From Fimbriimonadaceae bacterium (lineage in GTDB: Bacteria > Armatimonadota > Fimbriimonadia > Fimbriimonadales > Fimbriimonadaceae): a stretch of DNA of 64,000 bases. Within the stretch, counting starts at the first letter, position 1. The number at the start of each line of letters is the position of its first letter. The stretch covers positions 28,819 through 92,818 of the forward strand of contig JBASWW010000071.1 of the NCBI GenBank assembly GCA_049276675.1. Reading direction: 5' to 3'. The translations under genes were made by a program, and so were the position numbers. Below are positions 1,202-61,850 of the stretch, in pieces. The notes under the pieces are model-generated. The model did not search any database. It was given only the letters and a program-made list of their open reading frames with translations, and was not told where the DNA came from.

Positions 1202-3238
1202 ATGCCAAAGCCTGAACCCGCGCAAGCCCTCGCCAAGCTCGAAGCCGTCCCATTCACCCAGGTGCGGATCAAGGACCGTTTCTGGGCGCCGAGGCAGGAG
1301 ACGAACCGGAAGGCGACCGTCGAGCACAGCCTGCAGATGCTCGACAAATACGGCAATCTCCTCGTCATGCAGCTTGCCGCCGCCGGTAAGCGCGAAGGAT
1401 TCAAGGGGCTGCTTTTTACCGATTCGGACCTTTACAAGACCCTGGAGGGTATCGCCTACACGCTCGCCACCCATCCCGATCCGAAGCTCGACAAGCGCAT
1501 GGACGAGATCATCGCGCTCATCTCCACAGCCCAAATGGAAGATGGCTATATCGACACTTGGTTCCAGGTCACCCGACCCGACCAGCGGTTCAAGAACCTG
1601 CGCGATTGGCACGAGATGTATTGCGCGGGGCACCTTTTCGAGGCTGCCGTCGCCCACCATCAGGCCACCGGAAAAACAAATTTCCTGGACATAGCGACGA
1701 AGCTTGCCGGGCTGCTCTACGAGAGGTATGGGCCGGATGGCGAGGTCGGCTACTGCGGCCACCCGGAGCCGGAACTTGCGCTCATCAGGCTCTGGAAAGC
1801 TACCGGGGACAAGCGATGGTTCACGCTCAGCCAGCGGATGATAGAGCACCGGGGCGACAAGATCTTCGCTGCGGAGCATAAAACGCCGGTCGAGCGCTAC
1901 GACGGCACCTACTGGCTGGACGACATGCCGATCCGGGAGCACACGGAGATCAAGGGCCATGCCGTTCGCGCGGCCTATCTGATGTCAGGCGTCGCCGATA
2001 TTGCGCGGGAAACCGGGGATGCGGGGCTCATAGAGATGCTGCAGCAGGTCTGGCGCAATACGACCCAGAAGCGCATCTACATCACCGGCGGCATCGGGCC
2101 AAGCGCCGCCAACGAGGGTTTCACCGTGGACTACGACCTCCCCAATCTCACAGCCTATCAGGAAACCTGCGCCTCCATCGCCATTTCCCTGTGGGGGCAT
2201 CGCATGACCCTGCTTCTCGGGGACGCCAAGTACATGGACGTGGTGGAGACGGCTCTCTATAATGGGCTGCTCAGCGGCATTGGGCTCGATGGCAAGAGCT
2301 TCTTTTATGTGAATCCGCTCGCGAGCGAGGGCAGCCACCACCGAAGCGAGTGGTTTGAGTGTGCCTGCTGCCCGCCGAATGTGCTCCGAACCATCGCCTC
2401 TTTAGGGGGATATGCGTATGCCAAGGGTGGCTCGGGTGCGAGAAGCCTCTACGTAAATCTTTATATCGCCGGCTCGATGGAGACCAGCCTCGACGGACAG
2501 ACGGTCGCTCTGGATGTGAAAACCGACTATCCCTGGGATGGAAAGGTCGAGATCACGATCAAGAATCCTGCCAGATTTGCGCTGCACCTACGCAACCCGG
2601 GCTGGTGCCGGAACGCCACCATTCATTTCCCTGGAGGGACCCGCTCCGTCGGGTCCAACGCCTGCGCAGATGACGCGGACCCGACGGGGTCCAACGCCTG
2701 CGCAGATGACGCGGACCCGACGGTGTCCAACGCCTTCGCTGATGACGCGGACCCGACGGGGTCCAACGCCTTCGCTGATGACGCGGACCCGACGGAGCGG
2801 GTCCCTCCCGTGGAAAAGGGATATGTGGTTATAGATAGAACGTGGGAGGCAGGGGACAAGGTGGTCTTGGGCCTGGACATGCCCATCGTTCAGATGATCG
2901 CCAACCCTGCCGTGGAGGAAAATGCCGGGCGATTGGCGATCCAGCGAGGACCGCTCGTTTACTGTGCGGAGGAGCCAGATAACGAGATAGCGGTCGGGGA
3001 GATCGTCATCCCGGCGGGGAGCCCTATGCGGAGCCGGTTCCAGGAGGATTTGCTTGGCGGCGTCGTTGTAGTCGAAGCGGACGCGCTGCGGTCTCCGGCT
3101 TTAGATTGGGATGGGACGCTGTATCAACCTATCCAAGAGTCAAGGAAGATAACGGCGAATTGCATCCCATACGGTTTTTGGGCGAACCGCCTGCCCGGAG
3201 CAATGGCCGTCTGGTTCCCTGCGCTACCGCTTTCCTGA
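1202..3238 (+). CDS. Glycoside hydrolase family 127 (beta-L-arabinofuranosidase-like, DUF1680)
   Basis: 678-aa ORF with HypBA1-type motifs YQETCAS and ECACCPPNVLR (Glu/Cys plus Cys-Cys site) and HPEPELALIRLW. It carries an in-frame repeat insertion near the C-terminus. Confidence 0.85.
   Translation: MPKPEPAQALAKLEAVPFTQVRIKDRFWAPRQETNRKATVEHSLQMLDKYGNLLVMQLAAAGKREGFKGLLFTDSDLYKTLEGIAYTLATHPDPKLDKRMDEIIALISTAQMEDGYIDTWFQVTRPDQRFKNLRDWHEMYCAGHLFEAAVAHHQATGKTNFLDIATKLAGLLYERYGPDGEVGYCGHPEPELALIRLWKATGDKRWFTLSQRMIEHRGDKIFAAEHKTPVERYDGTYWLDDMPIREHTEIKGHAVRAAYLMSGVADIARETGDAGLIEMLQQVWRNTTQKRIYITGGIGPSAANEGFTVDYDLPNLTAYQETCASIAISLWGHRMTLLLGDAKYMDVVETALYNGLLSGIGLDGKSFFYVNPLASEGSHHRSEWFECACCPPNVLRTIASLGGYAYAKGGSGARSLYVNLYIAGSMETSLDGQTVALDVKTDYPWDGKVEITIKNPARFALHLRNPGWCRNATIHFPGGTRSVGSNACADDADPTGSNACADDADPTVSNAFADDADPTGSNAFADDADPTERVPPVEKGYVVIDRTWEAGDKVVLGLDMPIVQMIANPAVEENAGRLAIQRGPLVYCAEEPDNEIAVGEIVIPAGSPMRSRFQEDLLGGVVVVEADALRSPALDWDGTLYQPIQESRKITANCIPYGFWANRLPGAMAVWFPALPLS
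2633..2808. repeat. Composite palindromic/tandem repeat element: 23-nt perfect inverted arms flanking four 36-bp tandem units
   Basis: Arm ggagggacccgctccgtcgggtc (2633-2655) is the exact reverse complement of gacccgacggagcgggtccctcc (2786-2808). Units lie at 2651-2686, 2687-2722, 2723-2758 and 2759-2794. Units 1 and 2 are identical; units 3 and 4 differ from them at a few positions. The element translates as (G/V)SNA(C/F)ADDADPT x4. Confidence 0.95.
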
Positions 3239-34807: not shown

Positions 34808-36718
34808 GTGAGGCGGTTCATTACATCTTTGCCCGGGCGCGCCGTGATGCATTTCATGGCTGTCGCCCTTGTTTTGCCGTACCTATCTCTCGCGCTTGCG
34901 AATAGGGCCGAGGCTCAGCTTACGACTTTGCAGTCGTGGGCCGTGCTGGAGTTCGAAAACCAGAGCAAGAAAGGTGGGGCAAACTTTGGAAAGGCTGCTG
35001 CTGAGGCAGTCCATAACGAGTTGGCGAAAGCAGCCAAGGTTGACACCGTGCCGCAGGAGACGATCCAGCGGTCGATGACCGATCTTGGCCAGGTTCCGCC
35101 ACTCCGCACGAAGACGGACATGCTGCGTCTGGGCCAAGAGGTTCGAGCAACTTCTGTGGTAACCGGCGCGGTGGTCGACTGGCGTGTATCTCAGAGTGGA
35201 GGCGGAAAGAGCGGCGAGGTCGTCCTGCAGGTGATCGTCACCGACGTTGCGTCGGGGTTGCCCGCGAATGGCGCCCTTGTACAGGGTCAATCGACGACGC
35301 GTGCCGGCGACGTGTCGGATGAGACGCTTATCAACGAGGCTCTTTCGTCGGCAGCAGCGCAAGCCGTTCTGACAATCAATAGCCAGATCCTTCCGACGGG
35401 GACGGTTTTGAATACCGTCGGCCAGGAAGCTCTGATCAATCAGGGCGAGCGAACCGGCTTCAAGGTCGGGCAGGAAGTTGTCGTCCTTCGGGGACGTCAG
35501 CAGGTTGCGACCGCGGTTGTGGTCGACACCGATCCCGATAGCTCGAACATTCGAATCACTAAACAAATCCTTGGCACACAGCCTGGGGACAAGGTTCGGG
35601 CGATCTTCCCGGTGCCTGTTCCCAAGGCAGGCGGGGGGGTTTGGGGCTCTCCTGGCGGCACGCCGAACGCGAAGCCGGGAGCACGACGGGCACGTGGGGG
35701 CGCTGGCATTGGCTCCATCGCCGTTCTCATTGGCATTGCCGCGATCTTGTTCGGGGGCGGCCGCGGGTCCAGCGGAACTTTGGCCCATGATGTGAACGCC
35801 CAGGCTACGCTCTATCCGAACGAGTCGGGTGTGCCGGCAGTTCATCTGAGCTGGAGCCCGGATCTGTTCGCAAAGGGTGCGCAGCAGCGCGTCCAGTGGC
35901 AGATTTGGCGGGACGACGTCATTGACACCCCGGTTCTTGCCGTCTCTGGCGATCGGGTGACCGCCATAGACACAACGGAAGCAAGGGATGTCAGCTGGCA
36001 AGGTGCTCCGACCGGAGGCACTGAATGTGTTGGGGACAGTCGTGAAGACGCTCTGGCCCGACCTGGTGTTACGCCAGGCAGACCCTATCAGTATCAAGTT
36101 CAGTTGCTCTACAAGGTCAATTCGATCGATCTGCCCACCGGTGGCGGTGGTACCGGAACGACTGGAACGACTGGAACTACTGGAACGACCGGAACGACCG
36201 GAACGACGGGAACGACGGGCACAAATCTCTCTACAGGTGGAACAACCACCGGTGGAACAACCACGACCGGCGGAACGACGGGAACGCAGGATTGCTACTT
36301 CGCTTCGCTCAAGACAGCTGCTCGGGGCCTTGCGACCCCGTACAACAGACCTACGTTGGTTTCGCCGGCTCCCAATGCGGTGATTTCAACGCCGACGCCG
36401 TTTAGCTTCCAGTCGGTGGTGAATCCAGCATTCCCGTCGACGGTGCTATACGTGGTTCAGATCGCTACCACACCGACCTTCCCCAAGGGATCGACGGTTA
36501 CGGTTGCAACCCTGACCCGAAACGACCTGGGGACCTTGAGCACGGCCATTGTGGACGTGAGCACGATATTCCCAGGAGCTAATGAACTGTGGTGGAGGGT
36601 TGGCGCCCGCAATGTTGCGGACAATCCGGGGCCTTTGCCGGATTCGAGTGGCCAACGTTACATCTTCAGCTCCCCGCGAAGGTTCACGAGGCCGGGCGGT
36701 CCTCCTCCGCCTCCGTAA
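34808..36718 (+). CDS. Hypothetical envelope protein: signal peptide, LpoB/CsgG-like N-terminal module, internal TM helix, Thr/Gly-repeat linker
   Basis: GTG start 10 nt after AAGGAGG. WAVLEFENQSKKGG...VVTGAVVDW resembles the alpha/beta module of LpoB/CsgG/TolB-N type lipoproteins. Hydrophobic IGSIAVLIGIAAILFGG and a (TGT)n stretch are present. Confidence 0.6.
   Translation: MRRFITSLPGRAVMHFMAVALVLPYLSLALANRAEAQLTTLQSWAVLEFENQSKKGGANFGKAAAEAVHNELAKAAKVDTVPQETIQRSMTDLGQVPPLRTKTDMLRLGQEVRATSVVTGAVVDWRVSQSGGGKSGEVVLQVIVTDVASGLPANGALVQGQSTTRAGDVSDETLINEALSSAAAQAVLTINSQILPTGTVLNTVGQEALINQGERTGFKVGQEVVVLRGRQQVATAVVVDTDPDSSNIRITKQILGTQPGDKVRAIFPVPVPKAGGGVWGSPGGTPNAKPGARRARGGAGIGSIAVLIGIAAILFGGGRGSSGTLAHDVNAQATLYPNESGVPAVHLSWSPDLFAKGAQQRVQWQIWRDDVIDTPVLAVSGDRVTAIDTTEARDVSWQGAPTGGTECVGDSREDALARPGVTPGRPYQYQVQLLYKVNSIDLPTGGGGTGTTGTTGTTGTTGTTGTTGTTGTNLSTGGTTTGGTTTTGGTTGTQDCYFASLKTAARGLATPYNRPTLVSPAPNAVISTPTPFSFQSVVNPAFPSTVLYVVQIATTPTFPKGSTVTVATLTRNDLGTLSTAIVDVSTIFPGANELWWRVGARNVADNPGPLPDSSGQRYIFSSPRRFTRPGGPPPPP
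36155..36217. repeat. Seven tandem 9-bp units (ggaacgacN) encoding (GTT)7
   Basis: ggaacgact x2, ggaactact, ggaacgacc x2, ggaacgacg x2, followed by degenerate GGTTT-type units to about 36290. Confidence 0.95.
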
Positions 36719-50330: not shown

Positions 50331-52388
50331 TCATGGGGTGCCCTCATGGGCTACAGCATCTGTCGTTGCCTCGCGCTCCATCCTCTCCGGAGCGGAGATT
50401 CCAAGGAGATCGAAGGCCGCTTTTAGCCCGATCCTCGCAGCTTCGCATAAGGCCAGCCTGGCTTGGGTGAGCTCAGGTTGGTCGGGCTGGATGACGCGGC
50501 AGGCATCGTAAAAGAGGTGATAGGTCCGGGCGAGATCGACCGCGTAGGTCGTGAGACGGTGTACGCCGTAGTCCTCGGCACACCTTTGGACCTCGTATGG
50601 CAGGTCAACGATCTTTTTAATGAGGGCGAGCTCTTTGGGATGAGTAAGGTGTTGCGGTGTTAGGGTGTCACGGTGTTGACCTCCCACCGCAACACCCGCC
50701 TCCTCCGCTTTCCTAATCACCGAGCAAATCCTCGCATGCGCGTACTGGGCATAGAAGACCGGGTTCTCCTCGCTCTGCTTGGTCGCGAGGTCTATATCGA
50801 AGTCCATGTGGGTCTCATGGCTTCGCATGAGATAGAAGAAGCGGGCGACGTCTTTTCCGATCCTCTGTCGCTCTTCTTCGCTGGCCTTCGGTGCGACTGC
50901 TGCGCCCAGCTCGTTGATGAGGTCCTTTAGCTCGTAGATGTTGCCGTCCCGCTTGCGCATCGGGGCTGGCTTGCCATCCTTCACGAACCGCACGATCTGG
51001 AAGATGACGATCTCCAGGCGCTCCGGCTTGCCGTCCTTCATGGGATAGCCGAGCGCCTCGTACATCGCGTAGATTCGCCCGATGTACCCGTGATGGTCGG
51101 GGCCCAGGATCATGTACGCTTTGTCGAACCCGCGCTCCCCGAGCTTGCTTTCGAGGTACGCGACGTCGGCGGCAATATAGGCCGGCCTGCCATCCTCTCG
51201 GATCAGGACCCTGTCCTGGTCGTCGCCGAACCGCGTCGAGCGCAACCATACTGCGCCGGGCGGCTGCTCGACTTTGACCAACCCTCTCTCAGGGTCGTCG
51301 CGTGGCGTTTCCATTCGATACGGCTCGTTATCCGCCGCTCCGTTTGCCTTGAGCTTCTCGATGGCGGCGGCGACCTTGCCCTCGTCGTGGAGGGTCTGCT
51401 CGGAGAACCAGCAGTCGAAGTCGACGCCAAAGTCTTCCAACGTTCGAGATTGCTCTTGGGTCATGCCCCACACTGCCAAGTCCTGAAGTTCTTCAGCGGT
51501 GAGCTTGATGATTAGTTCAGCTTCTTTAGACTCGCCGTGCAGGTCGACTTTCTTGTCGATCGCCTCCCAGATTGCAACCTGACGTTGTTGAGCTACTTTG
51601 CCGAAGCCGACTTGGGACGCGGGCGAGTTCGGATCATCGAGCTTTGCCAAGATGTGTCTTGCATTGCGCAGATTGGACTTCAGCTGTTCGAAGAGGATTC
51701 GTCGAATAGCGATGGCTGCACGTTCGACGTATTCGCCCTTGTAGCCGTTCTCAGGGACGGGTCGTCCGAGCAGGCTTGCGCGAACCGACTCAGCAAACAA
51801 TCGCATCTGCTCCGAGTTCACGCCATCGTTCACGTAGTACTCCCGGTACACGTCGTGACCCGCTGTCCCGAACACACGGCACAACGTATCCCCGAAAGCC
51901 GCGCCACGGCCCGAGCCGACCGTGATCGGGCCGTTCGGATTGACGGAGACGAACTCGACGTTCAGGCGTTGCGGTGTTTCGGTGTTCCGGTGTTGGGTGT
52001 TGGGGAGCCTTGATCCCAACTCCAAGATGAGCTGCACATACGAGGCGATGAAGGAGGGATCGAGGCGGAGGTTGAGGAAGCCGGGGCCGGCGACGTCAAC
52101 GCCGGCAAAAACCGGGTTTGAACCCTCTCCCCCCAGCCCCCTCTCCCCCGGAGCGGGAGAGGGGGAGGTTAATAGCTCCGCCTGCAGCATCTCCGCGATC
52201 GAGCGAGGCGTCATCCCGCTTGACTTGGCGGCAACCAGCGCGAAATTGCATGCGAAGTCGCCATGCTCCGGCTGCTTCGTGTCCTGAATCTCGACTTCGA
52301 CGGCGCGCGCGGTTTCCGGCAGCTTTCCCTGACCGACAAGGGATGCCACGGCGGCGCGGAGGAGGTCGGCGAGAAACGAGCGGAGCAC
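50331..52388 (-). CDS. argS: Arginine--tRNA ligase (long form with repeat-derived insertions and non-canonical HIGH region)
   Basis: N-terminal Add-1-type domain (VAGPGFLNLRL), VEFVSVNPNGP...GRGAAFGD, REYYVNDG, the DALR anticodon-binding region (YAQYAHARICSV) and the C-terminal LTQARLALCEA pattern. Confidence 0.88.
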   Translation of the reverse strand: MLRSFLADLLRAAVASLVGQGKLPETARAVEVEIQDTKQPEHGDFACNFALVAAKSSGMTPRSIAEMLQAELLTSPSPAPGERGLGGEGSNPVFAGVDVAGPGFLNLRLDPSFIASYVQLILELGSRLPNTQHRNTETPQRLNVEFVSVNPNGPITVGSGRGAAFGDTLCRVFGTAGHDVYREYYVNDGVNSEQMRLFAESVRASLLGRPVPENGYKGEYVERAAIAIRRILFEQLKSNLRNARHILAKLDDPNSPASQVGFGKVAQQRQVAIWEAIDKKVDLHGESKEAELIIKLTAEELQDLAVWGMTQEQSRTLEDFGVDFDCWFSEQTLHDEGKVAAAIEKLKANGAADNEPYRMETPRDDPERGLVKVEQPPGAVWLRSTRFGDDQDRVLIREDGRPAYIAADVAYLESKLGERGFDKAYMILGPDHHGYIGRIYAMYEALGYPMKDGKPERLEIVIFQIVRFVKDGKPAPMRKRDGNIYELKDLINELGAAVAPKASEEERQRIGKDVARFFYLMRSHETHMDFDIDLATKQSEENPVFYAQYAHARICSVIRKAEEAGVAVGGQHRDTLTPQHLTHPKELALIKKIVDLPYEVQRCAEDYGVHRLTTYAVDLARTYHLFYDACRVIQPDQPELTQARLALCEAARIGLKAAFDLLGISAPERMEREATTDAVAHEGTP

Positions 52389-56847: not shown

Positions 56848-58368
56848 TTAGGCCTTGCCGTTTTTGCCCGCTCTGATCGCAGGCACCTTTTGCACCAGAT
56901 CAGGCAGGTTGATGCCGCTGAGGGCTTCCACCACGACCGGGACCTGGGCCAGCACATCGGCCACGCCTTTGCTCAGCTTGTCCATGCCGGTATCGCCGCC
57001 GCCGGTGTTGACCATCGTGATCTTGTCGATCTTGCCAAGCGGGGCGGCCACAGCAGCAGCTATCTCCGGAAGCTTCTCGATCAGCATCTGGCTGACGGCG
57101 GCCTCATTGTATTCCTGCCAAGCCTTGGCTTTTTGCATCATGCCTTCGGCCTCGGCGAGGATTTTGGCCCGCATGCCTTCCGCCTCGGCGAGCGATTTCT
57201 GTCGGATGGCTTCCGCTTCGGCATCGCCCTTGGCACGGATCACATCGGCATCCGCCATGCCAAGGATTCGGGCAGAGTCCGCTTCGGCCTCGGCGAGGGC
57301 TCTGCGACGATGCGCCTCCGCTTCGGCGAGCATCCGCACCTTGACCTTCTCGGCCTCGGCCGGCTTTTGCACCTCGTGCATCAGCTCCAACTCGCGCCGC
57401 TCGATCTCCGAGTGCTCGACCTCGATCTGCTTCTTCTTCTCAACCAGTGAGATGCCTAGAAGCTCTTCGCTGAGGAGCTGCTGCTGTTTGGCTTTCTGCA
57501 GCTCATAGGCCAGATCGCTTTCCGCTCGGGCGGTCGCCACTTCGGCTTCGAAGGCTCGCAGGCGCAGGTCCTTGTCCTTTTCCTTCTCGGCAATGGCGAT
57601 GTCGGCGCTCAATTTTGCAAGCTGGCCCTCTTCATTGGCTTTGCTCGAGGTTATGGTCGCCTCGCGCTCGGCAAGGGATTTGCCCATAGTGGCGTCACGG
57701 GTTGCGCTTGCCTCGCCGATCACGGCATTCTTCTGGACGTCGGCCATTTTGGGCCGGCCGATCGCCTTGAGATATCCCTGCGGGTCCTGGATCTCCCGGA
57801 TCGTGAACGAGATCACCTGGATGCCCATGTTCGCGAGGTCCTCCGCGGTCAGCCTCTGGACGCTCTGGGCGAAGGTTTCCGGCGAGGAGTGGATCTCCTC
57901 GAACGGCAGTGTGCTGATGACGGAGCGCAGGTGGCCGCTCATCATCTGCAGCGCGATCTCGTTCATCTCCGTTCGGCTGCGGCTGAGGAACATCTCGGCG
58001 GCGGTGATGAGCGCCGTCGGGTCGTCGGATCGCACCTTGATTTGGGCGATTCCGTCAACGATGATCGGCACGCCAAACTTCGTGTAGAACTCGGGCGTGC
58101 GGATTTCGAGCGTCATCAGCTCGAGGTTGAGGCGATCCACTCGCTCGCGAACGGGCCAGACGAACGTGCCTCCACCGTGGTAGATCCGGAAATTCTTGTG
58201 AACCCGGCTGCCGTCCTGAGCGGTGTAGCTCGAGGGCCGGCCACTGACGATGAGCACTTCATTGGGCCCTACCTTCTCGTACTTGGCGGCATAGAATCCG
58301 GCAAGCAAGAGAAGCACTACGACTGCGCTGAGCAGCCAGATCATTGGCGAATTGATGATGGTTTCCAT
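56848..58368 (-). CDS. Flotillin family protein (SPFH/Band 7 domain)
   Basis: N-terminal TM helix, SPFH core (VGPNEVLIVSG..., IVDGIAQIKV) and a long AEAEA-rich coiled-coil region. Confidence 0.88.
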   Translation of the reverse strand: METIINSPMIWLLSAVVVLLLLAGFYAAKYEKVGPNEVLIVSGRPSSYTAQDGSRVHKNFRIYHGGGTFVWPVRERVDRLNLELMTLEIRTPEFYTKFGVPIIVDGIAQIKVRSDDPTALITAAEMFLSRSRTEMNEIALQMMSGHLRSVISTLPFEEIHSSPETFAQSVQRLTAEDLANMGIQVISFTIREIQDPQGYLKAIGRPKMADVQKNAVIGEASATRDATMGKSLAEREATITSSKANEEGQLAKLSADIAIAEKEKDKDLRLRAFEAEVATARAESDLAYELQKAKQQQLLSEELLGISLVEKKKQIEVEHSEIERRELELMHEVQKPAEAEKVKVRMLAEAEAHRRRALAEAEADSARILGMADADVIRAKGDAEAEAIRQKSLAEAEGMRAKILAEAEGMMQKAKAWQEYNEAAVSQMLIEKLPEIAAAVAAPLGKIDKITMVNTGGGDTGMDKLSKGVADVLAQVPVVVEALSGINLPDLVQKVPAIRAGKNGKA

Positions 58369-59267: not shown

Positions 59268-59798
59268 CTAACGAAGCCGCCTCAGCGAGTTGAAAAATTT
59301 CCGGACGTCCGGAAATCCGTCACCCATGCCCATCTGCATGAGCATATACAACCGATCCCGGCGAAGCGCGAACCAAACTCGTCCCGAGCCAATTCCTCCG
59401 GGTCCGGCGAAGTCGCAAAGCTGCCCATCCATGCCCGAGAACCGTGCATTCTTAAACCTGGTGAGCGTCATGCCCGCATCTTTAGCCATTCCCTCCCGCA
59501 TCGCAGGAAAGAGCAGTTTCTCGGTCTCCTTGGTCGCGATGAACGGAAGGCGCATGGTGGCGGCCATGTAAACATCCACTCCGTCTTGGGCCAGCAGTCC
59601 ACGCAAGTTGGTGGAGAATCCCATTTCGGAGATAGACTCAGTCTTCTGGGTTGGGGGGACCGGCAATCGAACCGAGATCTTTGCCGCCTTGAACGAGTAG
59701 CGATCCCATTTCTGCTGGGTGACTCCCAAGGAAGCGGCAAGCAGGGCAAGGACGCACAGGAGTAGCCTAGATCGTGTTAAGTGCGGCATAGTCAACAT
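59268..59798 (-). CDS. Hypothetical secreted protein
   Basis: Signal peptide LLLCVLALLAASLG. No family recognised. Confidence 0.5.
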   Translation of the reverse strand: MLTMPHLTRSRLLLCVLALLAASLGVTQQKWDRYSFKAAKISVRLPVPPTQKTESISEMGFSTNLRGLLAQDGVDVYMAATMRLPFIATKETEKLLFPAMREGMAKDAGMTLTRFKNARFSGMDGQLCDFAGPGGIGSGRVWFALRRDRLYMLMQMGMGDGFPDVRKFFNSLRRLR

Positions 59799-59802
59799 CA
59801 GT

Positions 59803-60867
59803 ATGTCCGAGCTTCGATATCATCCGTTCCTTGGCACATGGGTTATGACCGCCACCCACCGCCAGGACCGGACCTTCCATCCTCCGCCCGGCTATTGCCC
59901 GCTTTGCCCCACCCAGCCAGGCGGATTCCCGACCGAAATCCCATTCGAGAGCTACGACATCGCGGTCTTCGAGAACAAGTTCCCTTCCCTGAGCCAGAGC
60001 CCGCCGGAGCCGGCTATCGAAGGCACGCCCCTGATGCCGGTGCGGCCGAGCCAAGGGGTCTGCGAAGTGGTCTGTTATACGGACGATCACAATGCCACCT
60101 TCGCGGGCCTTCCACTGGAGCAGGTGCGCAAGCTGACCCGTGTCTGGCAGGAGCGCTATACCGAGCTCGCGGCGCGAGATGACGTCGAATACGTTTTCAT
60201 TTTTGAAAACAAGGGCGCGGAGATCGGCGTCACCCTCTCCCATCCCCACGGCCAGATCTACGCCTACCCCTTCATCCCCGCCGTCTTGCAGACCGAACTT
60301 GCCAATGAACGCGCTCACCTGGACAGCACTAGCAGGAATCTCTGGGATGACTGGCTGGGAATGGAGCTGAGCCTAAATGAGGGCGCCGGTTGGTTCGTCC
60401 CGGCGGCTCAAGAGGACCGATCCGCGGGGCCGAGCCGAACCGCGTCCTCAGGTAGTTCTTCTCTAGGTAAGCGAGTGGTCGCTCAAAATCCGACCTTCGC
60501 CGCGATCGTCCCCTTCTTCGCCCGCTACCCGTATGAGGTCTGGGTGGCGCCATTTCGTCACATCCGATCCCTGAAGGAGATGTCCCAAGCGGAGCTGGAC
60601 GATCTTGCCGCCATCCTGCTAGACGTCGCGCGGCGGTACGACAAGCTCTTCGGCTTTTCCTTGCCGTATATCATGTCCATGCATCAGGAGCCCGCCGTCC
60701 CCGGCTACGAATTCACCCGCTTCCACGTCGAGTTCTATCCGCCGCACCGCACCGCCGACAAGCTGAAATACCTAGCCGGGAGCGAGGCAGGAGCGGGCGC
60801 ATTCATCAACGACACTTTGCCCGAGGAGACGGCGGCTCAGTTAAGGACTCTGAGCGTCGATACTTGA
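59803..60867 (+). CDS. galT: Galactose-1-phosphate uridylyltransferase (HIT superfamily, type 1)
   Basis: CPLCP zinc motif, SHPHGQIY active-site HxHxQ, and FYPPHRTADKLKYLAGSE. The internal ATG 59803 (MSELRYHPF) is preferred. Confidence 0.88.
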   Translation: MSELRYHPFLGTWVMTATHRQDRTFHPPPGYCPLCPTQPGGFPTEIPFESYDIAVFENKFPSLSQSPPEPAIEGTPLMPVRPSQGVCEVVCYTDDHNATFAGLPLEQVRKLTRVWQERYTELAARDDVEYVFIFENKGAEIGVTLSHPHGQIYAYPFIPAVLQTELANERAHLDSTSRNLWDDWLGMELSLNEGAGWFVPAAQEDRSAGPSRTASSGSSSLGKRVVAQNPTFAAIVPFFARYPYEVWVAPFRHIRSLKEMSQAELDDLAAILLDVARRYDKLFGFSLPYIMSMHQEPAVPGYEFTRFHVEFYPPHRTADKLKYLAGSEAGAGAFINDTLPEETAAQLRTLSVDT

Positions 60868-60944
60868 TCACTGAATTTGCAAGGGCTCACTACCAGCAGG
60901 GGCCTGCTCCGTCGGGTCCGTGCAGTTGGCTGAATACGCGGCGC

Positions 60945-61084
60945 GATTGACACGACGGAGCGTGTCCCTCCTGCTCCCCGAGATCACTCCCCGGGCTCCT
61001 CATCCGCGGTCAGCGATTGACACGACGGAGCGTGTCCATCCTGCTCCCCGAGATCACTCCTCCGGCTCCTCATCCGCGGTCAGC
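60945..61084. repeat. Two tandem 70-bp units, each with a gacacg-acggag-cgtgtc hairpin; the second unit includes the 3' end of the PrcA-like gene
   Basis: Units 60945-61014 and 61015-61084 differ at only a few positions. Each would encode LTADEEP(G/E)E-stop on the minus strand. Confidence 0.95.
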
Positions 61085-61746
61085 CTTCTGAAGCGGTTCT
61101 CGTGGGTTTGGCCCCTTTCCAAAAGGACCGCTTCGGGATACACGCCGTCAGTCGGCTTGGCATCGCCTTCGGACTGGGCCGCATCCACCCAAGCCTTCTT
61201 CAGCGCCTCCGAGGCCGCCTCGGGAGTTAAGCCCTTCGTCTTGATGGCGGCCAGAGAGGCCTTGAGACGGGCTGCTGACTCGTCGTTCGCCGCGCAATAG
61301 GCAAACCCGCGCCTCTGGGTGTAGTCGCCGTCGTAATCGAGGATGTAGTAGGAGTCCTCGGCGGGAGTGTCGCCGCACTCCGCAAAGAGCGCCCGGGCGA
61401 CGAATGGCGCGGTGTTGAAATCCCCGAAGGCCCGCTTGAGGGACCCGCTCAGGGCGGTGACGACCCGCTGGATAGTGACATCCTGCTCGCTCCGGTTGAA
61501 CCCCTCTTGATGGGCGAAGTCTATTGCGGCCACCCTCAGTGCCTCGACGTCCGACTGCTGGCCGATCGCCCCGAACATGAGCTGATCGTATATCTCGTAG
61601 ACCTTGCGGGCATGGCGGCGGTAGGTCAGCATGAGGATTCCGGCGTCGAGCGACAGGGCCAGCACGGGCGAGCCCTGACCAAGCTTGGATTCGACGTAGC
61701 CGGCTCTGTGGCCCATGCCCTCTTGCCAGTCGTAGGGGGTCAGCAT
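61054..61746 (-). CDS. Proteasome alpha-type (PrcA-like) Ntn-fold protein, isolated gene
   Basis: The block order resembles actinobacterial PrcA: SPVLALSLDAGILMLTY, KVYEIYDQLMFGAIGQQSDVEALR, ARALFAECG...YYILDYDGDY, and the tail NRFRRLT. There is no Thr directly preceding the first strand. ATG 61746 avoids overlap with tRNA-Lys. Confidence 0.6.
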   Translation of the reverse strand: MLTPYDWQEGMGHRAGYVESKLGQGSPVLALSLDAGILMLTYRRHARKVYEIYDQLMFGAIGQQSDVEALRVAAIDFAHQEGFNRSEQDVTIQRVVTALSGSLKRAFGDFNTAPFVARALFAECGDTPAEDSYYILDYDGDYTQRRGFAYCAANDESAARLKASLAAIKTKGLTPEAASEALKKAWVDAAQSEGDAKPTDGVYPEAVLLERGQTHENRFRRLTADEEPEE

Positions 61747-61774
61747 TGATTTTTTATACTCAGCGGTCAGGCGG

Positions 61775-61850
61775 TGGTGAGTCGGCTGGGACTCGAACCC
61801 AGGACCCACGCCTTAAAAGGGCGTTGCTCTACCGACTGAGCTACCGACTC
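61775..61850 (-). tRNA. tRNA-Lys (anticodon UUU), CCA encoded
   Basis: Hand fold of GAGTCGGTAGCTCAGTCGGTAGAGCAACGCCCTTTTAAGGCGTGGGTCCTGGGTTCGAGTCCCAGCCGACTCACCA. Acceptor GAGTCGG/CCGACTC, anticodon loop CTTTTAA, T-loop GGTTCGAGTCC. Confidence 0.92.

Follow-up and report, generated by a model that had tools for sequence, protein, structure and literature searches.

In E. coli, repetitive extragenic palindromes (REPs), which also make up bacterial interspersed mosaic elements (BIMEs), are short palindromes that carry a tetranucleotide tag directly 5′ of the stem and occur as single units, inverted dimers and tandem clusters, mostly near gene 3′ ends, with further units flanking the HUH/Y1 gene of TnpA-REP (PDB 4ER8), a REP-associated tyrosine transposase (RAYT). 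In Pseudomonas fluorescens, an inverted REP pair with a short variable spacer forms one long hairpin, the REPIN (Bertels and Rainey 2011, PMC3116915; Bertels et al. 2017, PMC5581495), and RAYTs are flanked by REPINs (PMC5581495). The tagged stem-loops of the GTAG and CGTC REP superfamilies, which include those of Opitutus terrae and Rhodopirellula baltica, form head-head and tail-tail (HH/TT) dimers with 20–100 bp spacers, cluster by tandem reiteration that includes flanking DNA, lie close to stop codons and also occur in frame inside genes, such intragenic copies being most abundant in the verrucomicrobium O. terrae (Di Nocera et al. 2013, PMC3733652). Here we analyze a 64,000-nt stretch of a Fimbriimonadaceae bacterium (phylum Armatimonadota; contig JBASWW010000071.1, positions 28,819 to 92,818), hereafter the window, in which the spacer between galT and a proteasome-subunit-like gene contains two inverted hairpin arms and a 70-bp tandem duplication. 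We put at about 85% the probability that this locus (locus 2) is a REP doublet of some age and in partial decay, REPIN-like and of the 'head-head' dimer type, that sits in a convergent spacer and later acquired the 70-bp duplication.

The family to which the locus belongs shares with each of these systems the traits just listed (proximity to gene 3′ ends as judged from locus 2) and departs from each in particulars. Unlike the REPs and BIMEs of E. coli, its units have the tag GGAG rather than GTAG, a 7-bp stem and a conserved hexaloop (CTCCGT) in which the complement of the tag is embedded; its hosts belong to the PVC group, Armatimonadota and other non-proteobacterial phyla, and its RAYT is distantly related (45 bits). 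Unlike the Pseudomonas REPINs, with which it shares no sequence, about 37% of its sampled arms lie in recognizable doublets and heterodimers with different stems are common; its doublet is at most a putative replicating unit. Unlike the REPs surveyed by Di Nocera et al., its tag GGAG is absent from the listed variants (GYAG, GYRG, GTRG, GTMG and GTGG), and none of six family tetrapeptides, taken from four of the arm's six frames, is present in that paper's supplement on intragenic REPs (PMC3733652). Rickettsia palindromic elements (RPEs) resemble the family in persisting in frame within conserved genes (here a GH127 gene, and AcrB, Tex, GluRS and PurL genes elsewhere) and differ from it in sequence, tag and loop; locus 2 is intergenic, and it belongs to none of RPE-1 to RPE-8 and lacks the CGTC tag. 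RPE-4 and RPE-6 are themselves CGTC-tagged and have no dedicated RAYT (PMC3733652). The IS200/IS605 insertion sequences (TnpA Y1; IS608) use a transposase of the same superfamily (Pfam Y1_Tnp), and by analogy hairpins in single-stranded DNA would be recognized in both cases, whereas no transposase gene lies between the arms of locus 2, which are inverted instead of forming ends of the same orientation. In kind, this is a REP/REPIN–RAYT system and not a new mechanism, and the family was previously unnamed.

A degenerate REP doublet between two convergent genes

The two genes converge on an intergenic spacer of 186 nt. Its features, the flanking genes and the other copy of the family in the window are as follows.

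2633-2808: other window copy, a doublet with perfect arms at 2633-2656 and 2785-2808, within the GH127 gene (1202-3238, plus strand)
59719-60867, plus strand: galT, galactose-1-phosphate uridylyltransferase (Pfam PF01087 and PF02744; start codon uncertain)
60896-60919, minus strand: left REP arm, degenerate; GCAG-GGGCCTG-CTCCGT-CGGGTCC on the plus strand when aligned with the family (tag GCAG 60896-60899, stem GGGCCTG 60900-60906, loop CTCCGT 60907-60912, stem CGGGTCC 60913-60919)
60920-60947: spacer between the arms of the doublet, 28 nt, of a sequence that is unconserved in the family
60943-61012: duplication unit 1, gene-distal; the right REP arm followed by 12 nt and by the last 9 codons and stop in untranslated copy
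60948-60971, plus strand: right REP arm, in unit 1; TGACACG-ACGGAG-CGTGTCC-CTCC, with T as first stem base where the consensus has G
60984-61013, minus strand: unused tail copy, CTGACCGCGGATGAGGAGCCCGGGGAGTGA, which would read LTADEEPGE* (...GAG CCC GGG GAG TGA); downstream of the real stop
61013-61082: duplication unit 2, gene-proximal; a copy of the right arm, plus the gene's actual 3′ terminus with its stop
61018-61041, plus strand: duplicate of the right arm, in unit 2, with the mutated tag ATCC for CTCC (A at 61038)
61054-61746, minus strand: proteasome-subunit-like gene, 230 aa (Pfam PF00227; 735 homologues)

The arms of locus 2 are inverted copies of one unit, with their tags pointing outward. 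The left arm lies 28 nt past the galT stop codon, and the arm at 61018-61041 begins 12 nt beyond the stop of the proteasome-type gene. On the minus strand the left arm reads GGACCCG-ACGGAG-CAGGCCC-CTGC, and its wear amounts to two stem mismatches (transitions, both giving G.T on the plus strand) and one tag mismatch (GCAG for GGAG). Its core (60896-60918) has three mismatches to 2633-2655 and to the reverse strand of 2786-2808 in the GH127 gene, the core of the right arm (60949-60971) has two mismatches to the GH127 arms, and the duplicate of that core (61019-61041) differs from it by one. In the dinucleotide-shuffled window we found no arm matches of comparable quality. As the first-pass annotation had noted, the locus holds a second copy of the hairpin-arm family together with a 70-bp tandem duplication, and each element of that observation was borne out. 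When the DNA of the doublet was folded, the two arms paired as one long hairpin in the minimum-free-energy structure (−21.7 kcal/mol, z = −2.6).

The two differences between the right arm and the GH127 arms, C>A and G>T, fall on the two sides of stem pair 4 (GGACNCG-ACGGAG-CGN′GTCC), so the hairpin still folds, and the compensatory nature of the change was correctly recognized from the sequence. What does not follow is that the pair evolved in situ, as we describe below. The description of the locus as a 'short form' of the element on account of a 30-nt arm spacing has to be reversed: the 28 nt between the stems is the ordinary form, and it is the GH127 copy that is unusual, being a doublet with a 20-nt spacer that was enlarged by an internal tandem array of four 36-nt units (2651-2795).

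Tandem Repeats Finder reported the duplication at 60943-61084 (period 70, 2.0 copies, 95% matches), and a repeat search paired 60943-61012 with 61013-61082 as tandem copies of 96% identity. The units differ at three of 70 positions (C at 60968 versus A at 61038, C at 60991 versus T at 61061, and G at 60993 versus C at 61063), and only short homologies, CGCGG and GC, are found at the join point. The G>T at the first stem base is common to both copies of the right arm, and this change is therefore older than the duplication.

The arms belong to a widespread family with a covarying stem

To place the arms in a wider context, we scanned for the degenerate 21-mer GACMCGACGGAGCRKGYCCCT with one genome per species, a pattern that left two stem positions free and allowed them non-complementary values. 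The scan returned at least 112 loci, with none of those listed coming from the window's own genome. Most of those listed carried labels of Chthoniobacterales/Verrucomicrobia, with others from Opitutaceae, Puniceicoccaceae, Kiritimatiellia and Planctomycetota/Pirellulales; the labels among the matches listed further included Chthonomonas (Armatimonadota), Latescibacterota, Eisenbacteria and Myxococcales, amounting to about eight phyla as judged by the labels of the metagenome-assembled genomes (MAGs). Three MAGs had at least 39, at least 32 and at least 22 arms. The conserved block has sharp borders, GGAC-N-CG ACGGAG CG-N′-GTCC CTCC, and 31 inverted doublets with outward tags occurred among the matches listed, with spacers of roughly 20–210 nt that were unrelated in sequence.

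A pattern search with tabulation of the stem, which had been suggested as a check within the genome, yielded both copies and covariation in this wider collection. Among the matches listed, the free stem pair was A-T in 81 of 166 arms, C-G in 78, G-C in five and T-A in one, and was mismatched in the remaining one. The C>A/G>T difference at locus 2 is therefore genuine covariation that marks one of two major subtypes, and it need not be a local event. A second, independent set, drawn from the 80 RAYT loci described in the next section, contained 81 ACGGAG-N7-CTCC sites that had been collected with no stem requirement, and all 81 had at least five of seven Watson–Crick pairs (69 had seven of seven). 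The stems in these loci comprised 24 distinct sequences, in which positions 1–2 were fixed as G-C and positions 3–7 each took three to five pair types. When 37 distinct arms were aligned, 95% of cells were paired as opposed to 64% in shuffles, five of the seven pairs had changes on both sides, and the covariation score was 0.749 as opposed to 0.150 in shuffles (none of 500 reached the observed value), falling to 0.05–0.11 when the partner was slid by 1–3 columns.

Judged from these alignments, the family signature is 5′-GG N5 ACGGAG N5′ CC CTCC-3′ or, on the other strand, 5′-GGAG, 7-bp stem, CTCCGT, stem′-3′; that is, the sequence of the 7-bp stem is free, whereas hexaloop and tetranucleotide tag are invariant, the tag (GGAG) lying immediately 5′ of the stem, where E. 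coli REPs have GTAG. The motif 15-mers had no match in the searchable literature, and Rfam searches of the whole window (gathering thresholds) and of 60700-61300 (E ≤ 10) returned two tRNAs and two noise hits only.

RAYT genes are flanked by the family's hairpins

A motif search of six-frame translations of the family loci, followed by tblastn, identified a candidate transposase. The 166-aa open reading frame (ORF) at L105:2486-2986, in a PVC-group MAG, scored 86.4 bits on the NCBIfam model NF047646, 'REP-associated tyrosine transposase' (cut-off 80), and matched Pfam Y1_Tnp; it scored 86 bits with the RAYT model as opposed to 19 bits with the IS200 model. It had 1,759 homologues at E ≤ 1e-5, many named RayT at their source, and in 17 sequences from genomes other than the window's the HUH motif MPDHIHLF and the tyrosine region KWEYVxxNPVR were conserved. 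The best solved relative of the RAYT profile was the distant E. coli TnpA-REP (4ER8, E = 6e-11, 45 bits).

In L105, one motif doublet precedes the RAYT gene and two follow it. The region at 2424-3170 places the gene between tail-to-tail heterodimers (stems GGCCCTG and GGACACG) with an 18-nt spacer containing GGTAGC, and the downstream dimer is itself tandemly duplicated with a 102-nt period. A RAYT of 46% identity in L049, from a Latescibacterota MAG, is preceded by an arm at a distance of 39 nt and followed by a doublet. A profile scan of metagenomes retrieved 80 RAYT loci, of which 24 had one to nine hairpins of the form 7-bp stem/ACGGAG/stem′ within 400 nt, usually on both sides, when the chance expectation was about 0.001 per RAYT locus; nearly all of these hairpins were followed by CTCC, a feature that the search did not demand. 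The RAYT link contained in the earlier suggestion of a REP/RAYT-type origin is borne out by the hairpins that flank RAYT genes in L105, L049 and the 24 metagenomic loci.

The same evidence bears on the possibility that the similarity between loci is due to chance, or that the locus is a CRISPR remnant, an integron attC site, a template/variable pair of a diversity-generating retroelement (DGR), or the inverted repeats of a miniature inverted-repeat transposable element (MITE) of a DDE transposase. Each has some superficial appeal, in that the 36-nt unit of the GH127 copy is of CRISPR-repeat size, the arms are inverted like MITE ends, and the near-copied 3′ end of the gene is reminiscent of the variable region of a DGR. 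We nevertheless regard the probability of this whole group as negligible. The shuffles gave no matches, and no Rfam family matched; the 36-nt units are joined head-to-tail with no spacers between them; the differences between the 70-bp units (C/A, C/T and G/C) are not adenine-specific and the copies are directly tandem, unlike those of a DGR, for which a Pfam scan covered the three flanking genes only and the neighbouring ORFs were not searched for a reverse transcriptase; and each arm is a covarying hairpin with conserved loop and tag, of a kind that flanks Y1/HUH RAYT genes and not DDE transposases.

The duplication copied the native end of the proteasome-type gene

The first-pass annotation had noted that unit 2 supplies the last codons and stop of the proteasome-type gene, that unit 1 keeps a near-identical but unused LTADEEPGE*, and that the repeat had either remodelled the end of the gene or been templated on it. 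The first two points held. On the minus strand, unit 2 reads ...CTG ACC GCG GAT GAG GAG CCG GAG GAG TGA, the real end of the protein (LTADEEPEE*, with the stop at 61056-61054). The ATG at 61746 is the real start, in agreement with all homologues; the mechanically called ORF (61054-61809) overlaps a tRNA-Lys (61775-61850, minus strand).

Comparison with relatives settled the matter for the templated alternative and against the remodelled one. The tail was present in orthologues of 72–93% identity, as RLTADEEPEE (P0001, 93% identical), LTSDEEPAGED (77%) and LTADEPPSEE (72%), and as judged from these sequences it is native to the proteasome-type gene. In the closest relative, whose contig L113 (that of P0001) is about 86% identical in DNA and has the same convergent galT, the galT/proteasome spacer measures 25 nt (1092-1116, TTTGGAGCGGACACTCCTACAAGCA) and contains no recognizable intact REP arm and no duplication. 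Because the native tail thus exists where there is neither an intact REP nor a duplication, the duplication must have copied the end of the gene, and the gene's end was not remodelled by the repeat. Moreover, the duplicated segment begins within the gene and ends beyond its stop, so that translation reaches the native tail before the copy and yields an unaltered protein; the distal copy of the tail is dead sequence.

Each tail copy is one substitution away from the GAGCCCGAGGAG of L113 (GAG CCC GAG GAG). The used tail carries a synonymous CCC>CCG and the unused tail a non-synonymous GAG>GGG, which is what selection on the used copy and drift in the unused copy would give, with one change on each side of the comparison. 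The spacer of L113 also contains GGAGCGGACACTCC, which resembles the tag, half stem and loop CTCC of a REP arm and may be what a deletion left behind or else a preferred target; the alignment that might define an empty site or a target duplication is too short and too diverged to decide. Downstream of the 77%-identical orthologue, L114 has a different palindromic repeat at 1300-1419, composed of GTTTGGAG units that are not of the REP family.

How the locus may have arisen

By analogy with E. coli and Pseudomonas, the units at locus 2 would be non-autonomous, and a RAYT encoded elsewhere in the genome, an HUH/Y1 tyrosine transposase, would recognize hairpins in single-stranded DNA, reading the stem as a shape and the tag and loop as sequence, and would mobilize the units. 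After insertion, a local tandem duplication of 70 bp, probably by replication slippage or unequal exchange, would have copied the right arm, the 12-nt spacer, and the last 29 nt and stop of the proteasome-type gene. The likely order of events is an old insertion, decay, the slippage-type duplication and further drift. The best-supported view is that the element is selfish or commensal, non-autonomous and, in line with the RAYT systems described above, mobilized in trans by a RAYT, and the locus-2 copy is probably an inert fossil. Tandem amplification of this kind has parallels in the family. Tandem Repeats Finder detected an array over an arm in two of the 112 loci, and reiterated units are suggested at the RAYT-flanking loci L105, L119, L131 and L134, which together indicate that such amplification is recurrent but not frequent.

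Several observations weigh against reading the locus as a RAYT-mobilized REP doublet with a later duplication. The arms of locus 2, with 1–3 substitutions each, are mutated in both tag and stem (tags GCAG, CTCC and ATCC), while the GH127 arms are perfect, and as a consequence the copy may no longer be recognizable by any RAYT. The family is represented in the 64-kb window by only five arms at two loci, the high copy numbers having been found in other MAGs. The tag GGAG is a one-base variant of the canonical GTAG of REPs and differs from it at that base. Neither tblastn with the L105 RAYT nor a profile hmmsearch of the six frames detected a RAYT in the window (nothing below E = 0.8). Finally, both 70-bp units are present in one assembly only: the independent Logan contig L197, which is 99.93% identical and carries the exact proteasome-type protein, ends 23 nt past the stop codon, within the REP arm (1484-1506, corresponding to window positions 61053-61031), and so neither shows nor excludes the second unit.

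This last observation, in a region that is repetitive by nature, raises the possibility that the duplication was created during assembly, through collapse or expansion of a repeat, in a genome that really has a single unit. Four lines of evidence led us to consider an artefact very improbable. First, the units differ at three of 70 positions and each tail has a private substitution relative to the outgroup, whereas artefactual duplicates are normally identical. Second, L197 carries the unit-2-specific CCG codon and, because unit 1 retains the CCC of the outgroup, CCG arose after the duplication by parsimony. Third, a break at exactly that point is how a de Bruijn assembler behaves at a two-copy repeat, so that the end of L197 is consistent with a repeat-induced break. 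Fourth, the other tandem array of the family, in the GH127 gene, is reproduced in an independent assembly. At the position of 61038, L197 has the consensus C where the window has A.

A possible role of the hairpins as RNA elements

The closeness of the arms to both stop codons (28 nt and 12 nt) and their capacity to pair into one long hairpin also invite a different explanation, in which the hairpins were kept mainly as an RNA element, be it a bidirectional terminator, a stabilizer of the 3′ ends of the galT and proteasome-type mRNAs, or a structure that modulates translation, and membership in a repeat family is a by-product. The stem mismatches of the left arm are G.U-compatible on the sense strand of galT, as such a role would have it. 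Liang, Rudd and Deutscher reportedly observed in 2015 that translation is lowered by E. coli REPs that lie no more than about 15 nt from a stop codon. In addition, most REPs are reported to be located close to the 3′ ends of convergent and unidirectional ORFs and to act as RNA (PMC3733652), and RNase R and PNPase target mRNAs that contain REPs (PMC12320835).

These precedents notwithstanding, an RNA role as the main reason for the presence of the hairpins seems to us quite improbable. A terminator and promoter scan of the spacer found nothing, and both strands of 60700-61250 are free of U-tracts and terminator-like sites. Folded as RNA, the whole spacer region was no better than its shuffles (z = −0.37 and +0.70), unlike the doublet alone, and two transitions that both happen to give G.T on one strand are expected by chance about half of the time. 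The closest relative has its 25-nt spacer without the doublet. Moreover, the unit is also found within the coding sequences of unrelated genes and beside RAYT genes, and a local role explains neither. An adopted RNA role is nevertheless compatible with the selfish-element account and does not exclude it, the candidates being a 3′ hairpin shared by both convergent transcripts and an influence of the arm 12 nt past the stop on translation termination. One specific candidate, an intrinsic (Rho-independent) terminator, was rejected outright because no U-run follows a hairpin in 60700-61250.

A possible recognition code

The selfish-element account leaves room for a further proposal, namely that the family constitutes a third REP 'tag class' beside GTAG and CGTC, with its own RAYT clade (more than 1,700 homologues) and with recognition through a tag that is complementary to part of the loop, the stem being free. 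We think this unlikely as a whole. What recommends it is the symmetry of the doublet, in which the hexaloops CTCCGT and ACGGAG are perfect complements and the tags can pair with each other, a symmetry that is kept in MAGs of about eight phyla by label. Because tag and loop are conserved across phyla while the stem is free, recognition might follow a simple code, possibly one of tag–loop pairing, and the transposase could select its cleavage or target site by tag–loop or loop–loop pairing, in the manner of the guide tetranucleotide of IS608. If true, the system would offer a simple, re-programmable code for single-stranded DNA recognition, and the GGAGCGGACACTCC of L113 would be a scar or a preferred target.

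The GH127 copy and other in-frame copies

The doublet in the GH127 gene is inserted in frame in the middle domain of a beta-L-arabinofuranosidase, to which it adds about 51 aa (GGTRSVGS-NACADDADPTGSx4-...ERVPP), and orthologues at 73% identity lack the insert. The independent ENA assembly L198 (99.2% identical) has the same array of four 36-nt units. In other genomes, arms or doublets lie in frame in an AcrB-type transporter (L053 5425-5498), the central region of Tex (L098 3748-3782), the anticodon-binding domain of GluRS (L016 6677-6740), PurL (L029 6151-6215) and the linker of a Ser/Thr kinase (L025 1692-1760). With GH127 counted, four of these six intragenic cases use the frame GGTRSV...TERVPP/TERRPP; the consensus arm contains no stop codon in any of its six frames. 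In a Chthonomonas MAG, five tandem 42-nt units with one REP arm each occur at L031 7611-7820, in an N-terminal extension of the dnaE ORF upstream of the PHP domain, where they probably belong to the 5′ leader rather than to coding sequence.

Uses of the signature and other repeats in the window

For the annotation of the window, the practical consequence is that the 'spare' gene tail is dead sequence that came from a local duplication beside a selfish palindromic repeat. More broadly, a compact signature and a matching RAYT clade are now at hand for a REP family whose hosts belong to little-studied phyla (Armatimonadota, Verrucomicrobiota, Planctomycetota and others). With this signature one can mask repeats, explain contig breaks in MAGs, and flag in-frame REPs that lengthen proteins such as GH127, AcrB, Tex, GluRS and PurL, and the wide variation of the stem against an invariant loop and tag amounts to a natural mutagenesis data set on how a RAYT reads its substrate.

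The window contains three further sets of repeats. At 36143-36286, about seven 9-nt units of GGAACGACN and a 15-nt pair would, on translation, yield repeated tripeptides. A 33-nt periodic repeat present in six copies (about 62–74% identity) at 57111-57331, within an ORF on the minus strand (56848-58368), resembles an 11-residue protein repeat. Runs of the octamer GGTGTTNC at 50638-50706 and 51960-52004, which are unrelated to the REP family, lie 1.3 kb apart and are 84% alike over 32 nt, and the first of them belongs to a 27-nt inverted repeat with a 15-nt loop.

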